34,539 nt of DNA from contig JBBDWS010000053.1 in NCBI GenBank assembly GCA_040902755.1, positions 1 through 34,539 on the forward strand. Reading direction: 5' to 3'. The translations under genes were made by a program, and so were the position numbers. A model generated the notes under the pieces. It was not told the DNA's origin and made no database searches. It saw only the letters and a program-made list of their open reading frames with translations. This stretch comes from Actinomycetota bacterium (GTDB taxonomy: Bacteria > Actinomycetota > UBA4738 > HRBIN12). Of this stretch, positions 4,296 to 25,770 are shown piece after piece (the stretch's first letter is position 1; each line of letters begins with the position of its first letter).

Positions 4296-4377
4296 GCCTC
4301 AAGCAGCGAAGCGGTAGGCCTTCGTGGGAAGCCTCAAGCAGCGAAGCGGTAGGCCTTCGTGGGAAGCCTCAAGCAGC
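4296..4377 (-). repeat. 35-bp tandem direct repeat (2 perfect units plus a 12-nt partial unit that is the rplT 3' end including its stop codon)
   Basis: gcctcaagcagcgaagcggtaggccttcgtgggaa occurs at 4296..4330 and identically at 4331..4365. gcctcaagcagc recurs at 4366..4377, covering the rplT codons GCT GCT TGA. Confidence 0.95.
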
Positions 4378-4990: not shown

Positions 4991-5100
4991 GGCCTACCGC
5001 TTCGCACTTGAGCCGGTTCCTTCTCGGCGCGAGAGACCTAGCCTGGACCTACGCTTCGCTGCGAGCCGGTTCCAGAGACTACCGCGTCGCGGGCTGAGGC
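4991..5100 (+). repeat. Three dispersed copies of a CCTAC(C)GC(T/G)TCGC-box unit in the infC-rpmI spacer and the infC 3' end, inverted relative to the rplT tandem units
   Basis: ggcctaccgcttcgcacttgagccggttcc (4991..5020), ggacctacgcttcgctgcgagccggttcc (5045..5073), and the weaker gactaccgcgtcgcgggctgagg (5077..5099). ggcctaccgcttcgc (4991..5005) is the exact reverse complement of 4306..4320 and 4341..4355. Confidence 0.7.
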
Positions 5101-8905: not shown

Positions 8906-9986
8906 CGGCCTCCACCCTCAGATCCTCTCCCACGCGGTCGAACGAGCGCACCCGCAGGCCCACGGCGTTCGCGATCGGCGCGAACCCGCGCCCTCCGAGG
9001 ACGGTCGGCGCATCGGTGCCTCCGACCAGCTTCGGCGCGAGATAGACGACGACCTTGTCGACGAGGCCGTCCTCGATCGCGGCCCAGGCCAGCGTAGGCC
9101 CGCCCTCGAGCAGCACCGCCTGGACGTCCCGCTTCCCAAGGTCCGCAACGAGCTCGCCGAGCGGCACGCGCTCGCTCTCGGGCTCGTAGACGACGACCTC
9201 GGCACCGGCGGCCCTCCACTCCTCGCGGCGCTCCGAAGATGCGAGATCGGTGGTCGCGACGAGCGTCGGCGCGTCCTCGTCGAACAGATCACCGGTCGCC
9301 GGGACGCGCCCCCGCGCGTCGACCAGGATCCGGAGCGGCGCGCGTCCCCGATATCCGGGCAGTCGGACCGTCAGTGCGGGATCGTCGGCGAGCGCCGTCC
9401 CGGCTCCGACCACGATCGCGTCGGAGGACGAGCGCAGACGATGCACGTCGGCCCTCGCCGCCTCGCCCGTGATCCATCGCGACGAGCCGTCGCGGGCGGC
9501 GACCTTGCCGTCGAGCGAGGCGGCCATCTTCCACGTGACGAATGGCAGCCCCGTCCGCACGTGCTTCAAGAAAGCCTCGTTCTGGCGAGCCGCCTCGTCG
9601 CCGAGCGTGCCGAACTCAACCTCGATCCCGTGTGACTGAAGCTTCGCGAACCCACGGCCGTCGACGATGGGGTTCGGGTCGCGCATCGCGGAGACGACGC
9701 GGCCGATCCCCGCGGAAACGATCGCGTCGGTGCACGGGCCGGTGTGGCCGAAGTGGTCGCACGGCTCCAACGAGGTGAACAGGACCGCTCCCCGAGCGCG
9801 CTCGCCGGCCGCCTCGAGGGCCCGGATCTCCGCGTGCGGCGTCCCGGGCCCCTCGTGCCAGCCCTCGCCGGCGACACGGCCATCGGAGGTAACGACGACG
9901 GCGCCGACCATGGGGTTCGGGGACACCAGTCCCCGCCCACGCTCTGCGAGCGAGATCGCCCGCTCGATGTACACCTCGTCGGACAC
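8886..9986 (-). CDS. ribD: Bifunctional diaminohydroxyphosphoribosylaminopyrimidine deaminase / 5-amino-6-(5-phosphoribosylamino)uracil reductase
   Basis: Track ORF 8886..10145 trimmed to GTG 9986 (VSDEVYIERAISLAERG...). Motifs HAEIRAL and LEPCDHFGHTGPC, plus the reductase domain. Confidence 0.92.
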   Translation of the reverse strand: MSDEVYIERAISLAERGRGLVSPNPMVGAVVVTSDGRVAGEGWHEGPGTPHAEIRALEAAGERARGAVLFTSLEPCDHFGHTGPCTDAIVSAGIGRVVSAMRDPNPIVDGRGFAKLQSHGIEVEFGTLGDEAARQNEAFLKHVRTGLPFVTWKMAASLDGKVAARDGSSRWITGEAARADVHRLRSSSDAIVVGAGTALADDPALTVRLPGYRGRAPLRILVDARGRVPATGDLFDEDAPTLVATTDLASSERREEWRAAGAEVVVYEPESERVPLGELVADLGKRDVQAVLLEGGPTLAWAAIEDGLVDKVVVYLAPKLVGGTDAPTVLGGRGFAPIANAVGLRVRSFDRVGEDLRVEADVHRDR

Positions 9987-10051: not shown

Positions 10052-10186
10052 CCGCCCGTCCTCTCCCATCCCGACTCTCACGGTCGGTCCCGGAATCGCG
10101 CCGGGTCCACCCTCGACCGGCTGCCGAGGGGTTGCGGACTGTCACCGCCGGTGGGGACTTGCACCCCGCCCCGAAGACGAGCTTCG
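10052..10186 (-). promoter_or_regulatory. FMN riboswitch (RFN element) in the ribD leader
   Basis: The minus strand reads CGUCUUCGGGGCGGGGUGCAAGUCCCCACCGGCGGUGACAGUCCGCAACC...GGACCCGGCGCGAUUCCGGGACCGACCGUGAGAGUCGGGAUGGGAGAGGACG. This matches the conserved RFN core. P1 is formed by 10173..10179 and 10057..10063. Confidence 0.9.
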
Positions 10187-11201: not shown

Positions 11202-11336
11202 GCCGTCCCTTCCGGTGGCTCGTCGAGGTGGTCATGAATGGCGTCGGCACGTGGGTCGACGGGCTTTACCGCCGCAGCGGGGTGTGAGGGGTCGGCAGGG
11301 TGCATCGGCCCCATCTGGGCGTTCACGCGCCCAATC

Positions 11337-14199: not shown

Positions 14200-16119
14200 T
14201 CACAGGTGCGGCTCGGCCTCAACCCGCGTCACGACGCCCCGCTCCGCAAGTCGGCGGATCGCCGCGCCGAACACGGCGACGTCGCCGGCATCCAAGGCGA
14301 CCAAGCATACCGTCTGCTCTTCCAGCGACGAGACGAGAAGCGTGCGATGCGGCAGCGCCGTCATCTCGTCCTCCAACGATCCGGTCCCGACCACGCGGAA
14401 CACCGGGGCGCCGACCGGGAAGCCCGCGTCGGCCAGCCGGGTCCGTTCCGTTCGCGCGAACCGATCGGGTTTGCCGGCGACGAGCGCTTGGACGGCGTGG
14501 TCGTTCGGCCGATTCGTCTGAAGGACGACGCGTCCAGACGGACCCGCCCATGCCGCGACCTCGGCCCACGCCGAGAGCGTTCGCTCTCGCGCCGCAACCC
14601 CGGCTCGGCGAAGCGAAGCGTCGGCGTTCAAGATCCCGACGAGGTCGAGTCCGAGCGGGCCGAAGTCCTTCACCGCGTCGATCCCGCCGACCACCACTTC
14701 CGTGTCGCCCGGCGGACGAGGCCGGTCGGAAGGTCCGAGCCGCGAGACGGGAACGGTGGCCACTCCCCGAGCCCACTGCTCGACGCGCTCGGCTCCGCCG
14801 CGCGCCACGCCGAAGTCCTCCGCTCCGCACGCGGCGCACCGCCCCCGCGCTTCGCACACGGTGCACCGGATCGACCCCTCCTCGGACCGCAGCATCCCGC
14901 CGCACGACGCGCACGCGGCGGGTTCGCCGCAGGCCCGGCAGACACGGGCCACGCCGTAGCCGCGGATCGGCTCGTACAGGAACGCCCTGCGCGCCTCGCG
15001 GAGCGTGGCGATCAGTCTCGGCGCTCTCCCCTCGGGACCAGGCTTCACGGCCTCGACCCGCGGCCACCGCCGGTCGGAGGTCTCGACGCCGACGTGGGGC
15101 GTCTCGAGGCCCTCGAGCGAAGGCATGACCGACGCGAGGACGGTGACCGCGCCCTCCCGAGTCGCCCGCGCGACCGCGACGTCCCGAACGTGGAAGTAGG
15201 GAGAGCGTTCCTCTCGATGCAGCGCGTGATGCTCGCGCCCGACGAAAAGCAGTCCGAGGTTCGGGACGGGCGCGAAAACCGCCGGCCGTGTCCCGACGAC
15301 GACGCGGTACCGACCGTCCCCGATGTCCAACCACATCCGGTACCGGGACCGCTTGTCACCCCCGAAGAAGCAAGCCACGTCCTCGCCGAACGCCTCCACC
15401 ACCGCCTTCACCGTCGCCGGCACCGGATCCACCTCCGGAACCACCACCACCGCCCCCCGCCCTGAAGCGAGCGCCGCAGCAACGCACTCGACCGCGAGCG
15501 CCGCCTCCTCCCCCGGCCCACTCCGAACCACAAACGTGCCAGCCCCCTCGCTCAGCGCGCCGAGTAGCCGAGCGCCGTTGTTGTACTTGTCCGCGAGAAG
15601 CGGCTGCGCGGCGGATGGAACGGCGGCGTCGTCGCGCAGGGCTGTGGGGCGAGGAGCGAAACCCGACGAACCCATCTCAACCGAGCCCGTCAGGGCGAAG
15701 CGACGAGGGGACCCACCGCCCGGAGCGACGACGCCGGCGTCTTCTTCGGACGCGACGCGCGGCGGATACGACCGCCCGATAACCGAGGCGAGCGGCGCGA
15801 CGTATCGCTCGCCGATCCAGCGATAGAGATCCAGCATCCGCTCGTCGAAGAAGCGGACCCGCGAGACGTGCTTGTGGACCTTCAGCATGCGCGCCGGAAG
15901 GTCGCCGGTCGGACCGAGAACCCAGCCTCGAACGAGCTTGCCGTGGAAGCGCACCTGGACCAACGAGCCGACGCCCGCCCCGAGCTCCTCGGCAAGCTCG
16001 TACGTGAACGGGCGATCGAGCGACAGGAGCGGGCGGTCCACGCAGACCGCGACGGGTCCGGAAAGGACGGCGGCTCCGCGCTCGAGCGTGGGACTAGTCG
16101 AAGGCGCGGCGGAGCTCAT
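14200..16119 (-). CDS. priA: Primosomal protein N' (PriA) homologue with degenerate Walker A/B motifs and an inserted repeat element
   Basis: 639 aa. Cys-rich Zn region [15 protein letters not shown]...[14 protein letters not shown] and C-terminal PriA similarity. GSGKT is replaced by GPGEE, and DEEH by GREH. The start overlaps metK by 26 nt, so the start is moderately uncertain. Confidence 0.85.
15624..15736 (-). repeat. ~113-nt imperfect-palindrome repeat element inside priA (in frame)
   Basis: The core 15639..15718 is 70/80 identical, without gaps, to 24441..24520 in carB. It is flanked by a perfect 12-bp inverted repeat, cggcgtcgtcgc (15624..15635) and gcgacgacgccg (15725..15736). Confidence 0.8.

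Positions 16120-22380: not shown

Positions 22381-22384
<4 letters not shown>
21512..22384 (-). CDS. pyrK: Dihydroorotate dehydrogenase electron-transfer subunit (FAD / 2Fe-2S)
   Basis: 290 aa. RRHFSI FAD motif and C-terminal [13 protein letters not shown]...ACTEGPVF cluster cysteines. GTGA overlap with the carB stop. Confidence 0.9.

Positions 22385-25769
<3,385 letters not shown>

Positions 25770-25770
<1 letters not shown>

Follow-up and report, generated by a model that had tools for sequence, protein, structure and literature searches.

How does one nucleotide sequence come to lie, in the same frame, within two unrelated housekeeping genes of a single bacterium? This question is raised by a 34,539-nt contig of an Actinomycetota bacterium (JBBDWS010000053.1, assembly GCA_040902755.1), the whole of which we call the window, with a G+C content of 69% and an imperfect palindrome inside both priA and carB. 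The original prediction had taken the priA copy for an insertion resembling a MITE (a miniature inverted-repeat transposable element) or a Rickettsia palindromic element (RPE), shared between the two genes as nucleotides and not through protein homology. Our analysis points to an RPE-like, non-autonomous palindromic repeat family that was inserted in frame in flexible linkers of housekeeping proteins and has been inherited since. We consider this explanation probable, though by no means secure.

Within the window, the two copies are identical at 97 of 115 positions with no gaps (priA 15624-15738 vs. carB 24426-24540). The 80-nt core that had been singled out as shared (15639-15718 vs. 24441-24520) does match at 70 of 80 positions, ungapped, with identical runs of 22 and 22 nt (plus 7). 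Chance does not approach this level, as 200,000 random pairs of 80-mers drawn from the window averaged 23 matches and reached a maximum of 45. Both copies lie on the minus (coding) strand of long open reading frames (ORFs) and in the same reading frame. The perfect 12-bp inverted repeat reported for the priA copy (15624-15635/15725-15736) is present, and the full imperfect arms measure 29 nt in priA (86% matching; Table 1) and 32 nt in carB (24421-24452/24512-24543, 84% matching). When each copy was folded, as had been suggested, it beat all 200 dinucleotide shuffles on either strand (z −3.5 to −5.6). A search with nhmmer found no third copy in the window, and an identical priA insert occurs in a contig of an independent Logan assembly (L001, SRR27977660).

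The relatives that we compared are uncultured “Actinomycetota bacterium” metagenome-assembled genomes (MAGs) and metagenome contigs, covered over the syntenic carA-priA region; the window and these syntenic loci total 317 kb. Across them, the window palindromes prove to belong to a small, GC-rich hairpin repeat family in an uncultured Actinomycetota clade. Two subfamilies are found, type A (~115-123 nt) and type B (~84-90 nt), which are homologous over both stems and the CGCTTCGCTCC repeat. The same nucleotide sequence occurs in three unrelated genes, with each subfamily in more than one of them, and the same site can be found empty, forward, inverted, partly deleted, or decayed. The claim that unrelated genes share this segment at the nucleotide level is strengthened by a further host gene (carA), by a second subfamily, and by inverted copies that encode a different peptide.

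At the priA site, every close PriA relative (84-91% identity) has the insert at the same linker position, and it is also present at 72-74% identity. In other PriA homologues the insert is degenerate or has been deleted in part, and it is missing from many priA orthologues, including one entire subclade with a short, unrelated linker. Many other PriA proteins contain type B, either forward or inverted. In P0024 (PriA 71% identity), the element is inverted at the same site, and this inverted form was recovered on three contigs from different samples. At the DNA level, the copy of this form in L012 priA lies on the opposite strand, and after flipping it is identical to the window priA copy at 100 of 115 positions, with both conserved arms intact. 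We rejected the SVEM/LLET centre haplotypes as evidence of gene conversion, because ordinary descent within the PriA tree explains them.

At the carB site of the window, close CarB orthologues (~93% identity) all have the element. The element in the window is thus an old vertical inheritance and not a recent insertion, because all close PriA and CarB orthologues carry it at the same site. Among CarB homologues at 78-84% identity, most are missing the insert, and the others carry, in a patchy distribution, type A, type B in forward or inverted orientation, or a deleted form. In L015 (1618-1691), the type A copy in carB has lost 39 nt, in frame and exactly between its two internal CGCTTCGC direct repeats, which leaves a CarB of 1116 aa and is consistent with slippage between the repeats. 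The L016 copy has decayed. The carB linkers of L016 (GGGGCCGGCGGCGACCCCGCCGGCTTGGGG) and L012 are without the full element but contain a short palindrome, GCCGGCGG CGACC CCGCCGGC, or fragments (CTGCGGGCGGTG...GGGCCTTCGCTC). These sequences could be footprints of a lost element or could represent a palindromic target.

The third host gene is carA, in which L019 carries an inverted type B copy in frame (9690-9839, together with an adjoining hairpin with a 14-bp stem at 9800-9831). The same CarA loop (after ...DPxxW) holds a different in-frame palindrome in L020, a hairpin with a 17-bp stem (9750-9815). CarA is ~40 residues longer in both L019 and L020, and carA of the window has no element. With regard to subfamily, priA and carB are both type A in the window and both type B in L017, but in L018 carB is type A and priA type B. 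Because L018 mixes the two types, the priA and carB sites do not simply evolve in concert, and we rejected the idea that their copies always do so. Directly upstream of its type A copy, carB of L018 has an extra in-frame segment of ~27 nt (VAERRSGGV, 11230-11256), which may be a partial duplication of the element’s end.

The pairing of the outer stem has been kept while its sequence has changed. The family stem consensus is roughly GGCGGGGTCGTCGC.../...GCGACGACCCCGCC, and the outer stem spans ~27-30 bp. In an alignment of nine type A copies, the outer helix comprises 27 pairs; both partners have changed in 12 of them, and pairing holds in 93.8% of cells. The observed covariation values were not reached in any of 500 shuffles, and sliding the partner by 1-3 columns gave 1-3 such pairs; the shuffles ignore phylogeny, which does not affect the slid controls. 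Type B stems show the same covariation pattern. Stem mismatches comprise G-U in 4 cells and C-A in 7, with no strand bias, so the pairing cannot be assigned to one RNA strand. Wobble-pair strand asymmetry was accordingly dropped as a test of RNA vs. DNA. A conserved central hairpin was also rejected, as it appears only in the window priA copy, needs G-U pairs, and is not conserved.

The stem closes a loop of ~60 nt, which is non-palindromic and the most conserved part of the element. Its two direct repeats are based on CGCTYCGC, which reads GCGNAGC on the opposite strand, and SCGNAGS motifs (GCGNAGC or CCGAAGG) occur in these repeats at fixed positions and on one strand of the element only. 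Each copy has 1-3 GCGNAGC-type motifs on one loop strand; such motifs are frequent in GC-rich DNA, with a background in the window of 1.56 per kb per strand. Within the arms, the N of the motif varies most; at 44 of 46 peptide sites, the residue there is F or S (TNC codons). Unusually stable DNA mini-hairpins have been reported at single-strand initiation sites, and their consensus is GCGNAGC (PMC13037366). The GGGCTGTGGGGCGAGGAGCGAA arm is identical in both window copies and in L003, L007, L008, and L012, and in priA of the window its mini-hairpin word reads GCGAAAC instead of GCGAAGC.

This conservation holds at the level of nucleotides. Between the window and L012, priA is 71% identical and synonymous third-position identity is 0.54, yet all 49 of 49 arm nucleotides are identical, and the inverted L012 copy encodes a different peptide despite these identical arms. 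Likewise, the type B cores of L018 priA and L019 carB are identical at 48 of 50 positions, while their outer stems are unalike. The CarB proteins of these two hosts are 78% identical, with saturated synonymous sites (identity 0.60).

In both host proteins of the window, the insert falls at a domain boundary. In PriA, it is placed between the 3′ DNA-binding domain (3′BD, residues 25-115) and the helicase core (from ~183), and the translation given in the original prediction is exact. In CarB, it follows just after the equivalent of Escherichia coli CarB residue ~404 and precedes the oligomerization domain (454-533). An AlphaFold2 model of the window PriA, built on a 58-sequence alignment, has a mean predicted local distance difference test (pLDDT) score of 87.8; internally, the score drops below 50 only at residues 130-169, which make up the insert and are without secondary structure. 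The ~39-residue segment between the 3′BD and helicase domains is therefore predicted to be disordered. Host ORFs stay open in all copies, and the element is stop-free, in both orientations, in the frames actually used, with a conserved stop in one forward frame. PriA orthologues with as little as ~72% identity retain the peptide motifs PRR[FS]ALTG and G[FS]APRPTALR, and the inserted peptide has no Pfam domain match.

Two further observations concern PriA itself. E. coli PriA has a winged-helix domain, which seems to be missing from the PriA of this clade, because without the insert only ~27 residues separate the 3′BD (25-115) and the helicase core (~183). In addition, the 5′ part of priA contains an inverted repeat of 13-14 bp with a loop of ~47 nt (window 15929-16004, L014 10116-10191). 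It is kept in these two genomes and corresponds to the codons for YELAEE/HGKLVR, and it may simply reflect conserved protein sequence.

Table 1. Positions of the host genes and of the palindromic element with its parts in the window.
Feature	Position	Strand	Remarks
Host gene priA	14200..16119	−	639 aa; Pfam 3′BD and PDB PriA matches
Host gene carB	22381..25770	−	1129 aa
Type A palindromic element, priA copy	15620..15740	−	In frame; PriA residues ~128-168
Type A palindromic element, carB copy	24421..24543	−	Orientation and frame as priA copy; CarB residues ~411-449
Outer stem arm 1, priA copy	15620..15648		Partner 15712-15740; sequence variable between copies, complementarity kept
Outer stem arm 2, priA copy	15712..15740		Partner 15620-15648
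Conserved arm GGGCTGTGGGGCGAGGAGCGAA (+ strand), priA copy	15639..15660		Coding strand TTCGCTCCTCGCCCCACAGCCC, encoding FAPRPTAL; contains direct repeat 2
Conserved arm GTCAGGGCGAAGCGACGAGGGG (+ strand), priA copy	15689..15710		Coding strand encodes PRRFALT; contains direct repeat 1; GCGAAGC at 15695-15701
Conserved arm, carB copy	24441..24462		GCGAAGC at 24458-24464
Conserved arm, carB copy	24491..24512		GCGAAGC at 24497-24503

Under the explanation that we favor, a mobilizing activity acting in trans, or ectopic copying, would bring copies to new genes, and only insertions that are in frame, stop-free, and located where essential genes encode flexible linkers would survive. The in-place flips and the apparent “compensation” in the stems could then arise by recombination or by template switching between the two inverted arms, or through selection for pairing. 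Over time, copies would occasionally invert at their site, drop internal sequence through slippage, decay, or vanish. The conserved loop would probably be the recognition site of the moving or maintaining activity, which could explain why intact cores are conserved across lineages while cores decay in some.

Several of our results nevertheless weigh against an RPE-like mobile family, beginning with its scarcity. Profile searches of the 317 kb found no copies outside the priA, carB, and carA sites, intergenic sequence included, which amounts to a low density. No real element with the exact 20-nt arm was found in 185,579 GTDB species genomes (the single match to the right arm, in Halomonas, was a chance match), and a metagenome scan with two core words found only three further true copies, all at the orthologous carB site (~93% CarB identity); these collection scans need exact words and miss diverged copies. 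Simple repeats of the GCGAGGAGCGAAG type, unrelated to the element, account for the remaining metagenome matches (L004, L005, L006, L009, L010, and L011). Among 1.84 billion representatives searched exhaustively with HMMER, the forward peptide was not found in other host proteins, the only matches being translations of CRISPR arrays. A 40-aa profile run against 5.8 billion proteins returned two candidates, neither significant, with a word index too coarse for so short a query. Plasmids, phages, and IMG/VR yielded nothing relevant, and Rfam 15 gave only chance-level matches at the element (E>1).

The element also lacks the usual marks of transposition. No direct repeat flanks any aligned copy as a target-site duplication, and no linked transposase was found, nor any gene for a RAYT, the tyrosine transposase associated with repetitive extragenic palindromic (REP) sequences (IS200/IS605-type Y1), in the 20-kb loci. 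The terminal inverted repeats have a loose 14-bp consensus, and variation is greatest at the ends and conservation lies in the interior, whereas a classical MITE has the opposite pattern. The MITE label first given to the palindrome is thus not supported in its strict sense, given the missing target-site duplication, the variable terminal inverted repeats, and the low density.

A further objection comes from synonymous sites, scored as third-position invariance among codons for the same amino acid. Among five CarB orthologues, the third position was invariant in 15 of 16 cases inside the element, compared with 48.9% outside (n=855, P=1.9e-4), and among four PriA orthologues in 17 of 22, compared with 37.7% outside (n=395, P=1.9e-4). 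A dead insertion would not show such synonymous conservation. According to the original prediction, the segment would be ancient and protein-level if all close orthologues contained it with ordinary codon-level divergence. Carriage by all close orthologues is what we found, but the synonymous sites are unusually conserved, and because divergence inside the element is not of the ordinary codon-level kind, that outcome did not arise. The central tension is that selection seems to keep orthologous copies where they are, which is not expected of a dead selfish insertion. By analogy, a persistent partnership between element and enzyme, as proposed for REPINs and RAYTs, is a possible reading.

The same tension gives weight to a host-functional nucleic-acid signal, in which purifying selection would preserve the stem-loop as a structure of single-stranded DNA or of RNA that happens to be housed in coding linkers. 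Possible roles include a priming or replication-restart site, a recombinase or nucleoid-protein site, and an mRNA processing or pausing signal. A covarying stem with an invariant loop is the classic signature of a structured element, and the synonymous conservation extends over both priA and carB. Similarly, the arms are fully identical between the window and the inverted L012 copy though priA has diverged, and type B cores show 96% identity between genes and between deep lineages while their outer stems differ. The SCGNAGS motifs keep their strand and positions, with variation almost confined to N, and the stability of the GCGNAGC mini-hairpin and its occurrence at single-strand initiation sites (PMC13037366) would suit such a role. 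However, the element is dispensable, being missing in most CarB and many PriA orthologues, decaying in L016, and losing 39 nt in L015. It also sits in either orientation relative to transcription, its stem shows no G-U vs. C-A strand bias, Rfam has no match for it, and there is no known reason for its location inside coding sequence. On balance, we regard a host signal as unlikely. More doubtful is the proposal that purifying selection acts on the loop as a nucleic-acid signal in single-stranded form, situated inside essential genes, whose two or three mini-hairpin motifs are carried on a long covarying stem, whose strand can be switched by frame-preserving inversion, and which has been installed repeatedly at a few linker sites. 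Such a signal might, for example, serve in priming or replication restart, or provide a handle for a dedicated recombinase or HUH-type enzyme.

We find it improbable that no mobility was involved at all, with one ancient insertion or duplication seeding the carA-carB...priA neighbors, ectopic gene conversion following later, and symmetry arising by quasipalindrome template switching. All known host sites do fall within one ~12-kb syntenic stretch, although this clustering may be an ascertainment effect because only the carA-priA region was sampled. Inheritance in the window’s clade is vertical, orthologous copies are slightly more alike than paralogous ones, and the L015 deletion between direct repeats indicates that slippage-type events happen here. 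The matching priA and carB types of the window and L017 would also fit, but the mixed types of L018 do not. An initial insertion is still needed at each of the three sites, the distribution at the carB and carA sites is patchy, and gene conversion within a genome cannot explain near-identical cores between lineages with saturated synonymous sites. Selection on the ~39-residue peptide itself, as a functional linker or interaction motif in PriA and CarB, is very improbable. The retention of its two motifs in PriA orthologues down to ~72% identity is what this idea would expect, but it is largely refuted by the unrelated peptide that inverted copies encode at the same site. Moreover, synonymous positions are conserved while a non-synonymous one (F/S) varies, the segment is predicted to be disordered, its absence and deletion are tolerated, and Pfam recognizes no domain in it. 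As for a collapsed or misjoined repeat in a metagenome assembly, inverted repeats can confuse short-read assemblers, but the same inserts appear in independent Logan, JGI, ENA, and NCBI assemblies, long ORFs are always preserved, and the inverted P0024 form is on three contigs from different samples, making an artefact or chimera scarcely credible.

Several other repeats and one RNA feature were seen alongside the element. On either side of rpmI-rplT lie boxes reading CCTACCGCTTCGC(T/A)GC, four in all and in inverted orientation (window 4306-4348, minus; 4998-5059, plus). One pair forms a 35-nt tandem repeat downstream of rplT, and the other lies in the infC-rpmI spacer, 54 nt apart and with a duplicated GGAACCGGCTC. 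A tentative family link between this rplT/infC box and the priA/carB element had been proposed, but we rejected it, as only the 8-9-mer CGCTTCGC is shared. Both box blocks are missing from the close relative L014, and are therefore separate, lineage-specific intergenic insertions. A 33-nt, relatively A+T-rich repeat, CTAGCAAGGGGAACTATCCCCTTGAGGGCGGTA, occurs at 45-77 and 2707-2739 in opposite orientation, 2.6 kb apart; the copies are 94% complementary, with a small hairpin of their own inside. The sole window match to Rfam at gathering score is a flavin mononucleotide (FMN) riboswitch (RF00050, 95.5 bits) at 10054-10182 (minus), upstream of riboflavin genes. Among the metagenome matches, L005 (9465-9562) and L009 (1600-1690) come from an unrelated, lower-G+C organism that has a 14-nt tandem array (GGCGAGGAGCGAAG, 7 copies) and also an intergenic stretch with both ends resembling the element arms, which we judged to be a simple-repeat coincidence.

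How, then, does the element compare with known systems? Correction and inversion of quasipalindromes by intramolecular template switching is an established mutational mechanism. It would give paired arm changes and in-place inversion of the spacer without selection, but it accounts neither for a loop that is conserved and non-palindromic nor for the occurrence of one element in three genes. The loop also recalls the GCGNAGC/GCGNNAGC mini-hairpins (PMC13037366), with 1-3 motifs per copy on one loop strand and mostly N varying, but the resemblance is confined to a 7-mer, and an origin or priming function here would be an analogy. Intragenic bacterial MITEs that create in-frame fusions include QMITE1 of Coxiella (PMC5896051) and the ERIC/RU elements (PMC2759123). 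Like the element described here, these are small, non-autonomous repeats with inverted ends and open frames that lie inside ORFs. By contrast, they have many intergenic copies and recognizable terminal inverted repeats and/or target-site duplications, neither of which was demonstrated in our family.

REPIN-RAYT systems show that such families can persist for a long time through vertical inheritance, and with REPs and REPINs our element shares both this long vertical maintenance and the presence of palindromic repeats inside genes. Intragenic REPs are GTAG- and CGTC-tagged palindromic repeats, many of them in replication and repair genes, some within small target palindromes, and the CGTC class is without a dedicated transposase (PMC3733652). 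By the criteria of that study, our copies have no GTAG, and CGTC is found inside most type A stems but at no fixed terminal position (PMC3733652). In addition, REP units are 20-40 bp long, occur in high copy number and mostly outside genes, and have both their stems and a terminal tetranucleotide conserved, whereas the element here is 84-123 bp long with variable stems.

Precedents for in-frame palindromic repeats thus comprise intragenic REPs, QMITE1, and RPEs (PMC10969869, PMC3733652, PMC5896051), and the last of these, RPE-1 to RPE-10 of Rickettsia (Ogata et al. 2000, as summarized in PMC10969869 and PMC3733652), are the system to which the original prediction had likened the insert. That comparison held in three respects. 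Like an RPE, the element is a palindromic repeat of ~100-150 bp forming a long hairpin, as seen in its folding scores and its covarying helix of 27 pairs. It is inserted in frame in unrelated housekeeping ORFs (priA and carB, and carA in L019). It is also predicted to form an extra loop compatible with the protein fold, judging from the low-confidence PriA segment in the model and the domain-boundary position. Moreover, neither system has a known transposase. Sequence homology to RPEs is unlikely because of the base composition of 69% G+C.

There are also clear differences. RPEs occur in Rickettsia at dozens of sites, whereas the host here is a high-G+C, apparently free-living Actinomycetota clade with three host sites in 317 kb of syntenic sequence, none of them intergenic. 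The literature that we searched yielded no actinobacterial counterpart, in keeping with the original prediction, whose author knew of no equivalent described for high-G+C actinobacteria. These inserts add 25-40 residues to PriA, CarB, and CarA and may mislead annotation, alignment, and marker-gene phylogeny in MAGs. A single linker site that is empty, forward, inverted, partly deleted, or decayed across lineages also amounts to a natural experiment, and the conservation of the loop at the nucleotide level could be a route to the enzyme or function underlying such elements, RPEs included. Descriptions of in-frame palindromic repeats come mainly from Rickettsia and some Proteobacteria, and such repeats can now be placed in high-G+C environmental Actinomycetota, in core replication and pyrimidine-synthesis genes. 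What sets this family apart from RPEs is that the same sites are taken recurrently, by different subfamilies and in both orientations through frame-preserving inversion, with a loop that is more conserved than the variable stems enclosing it.

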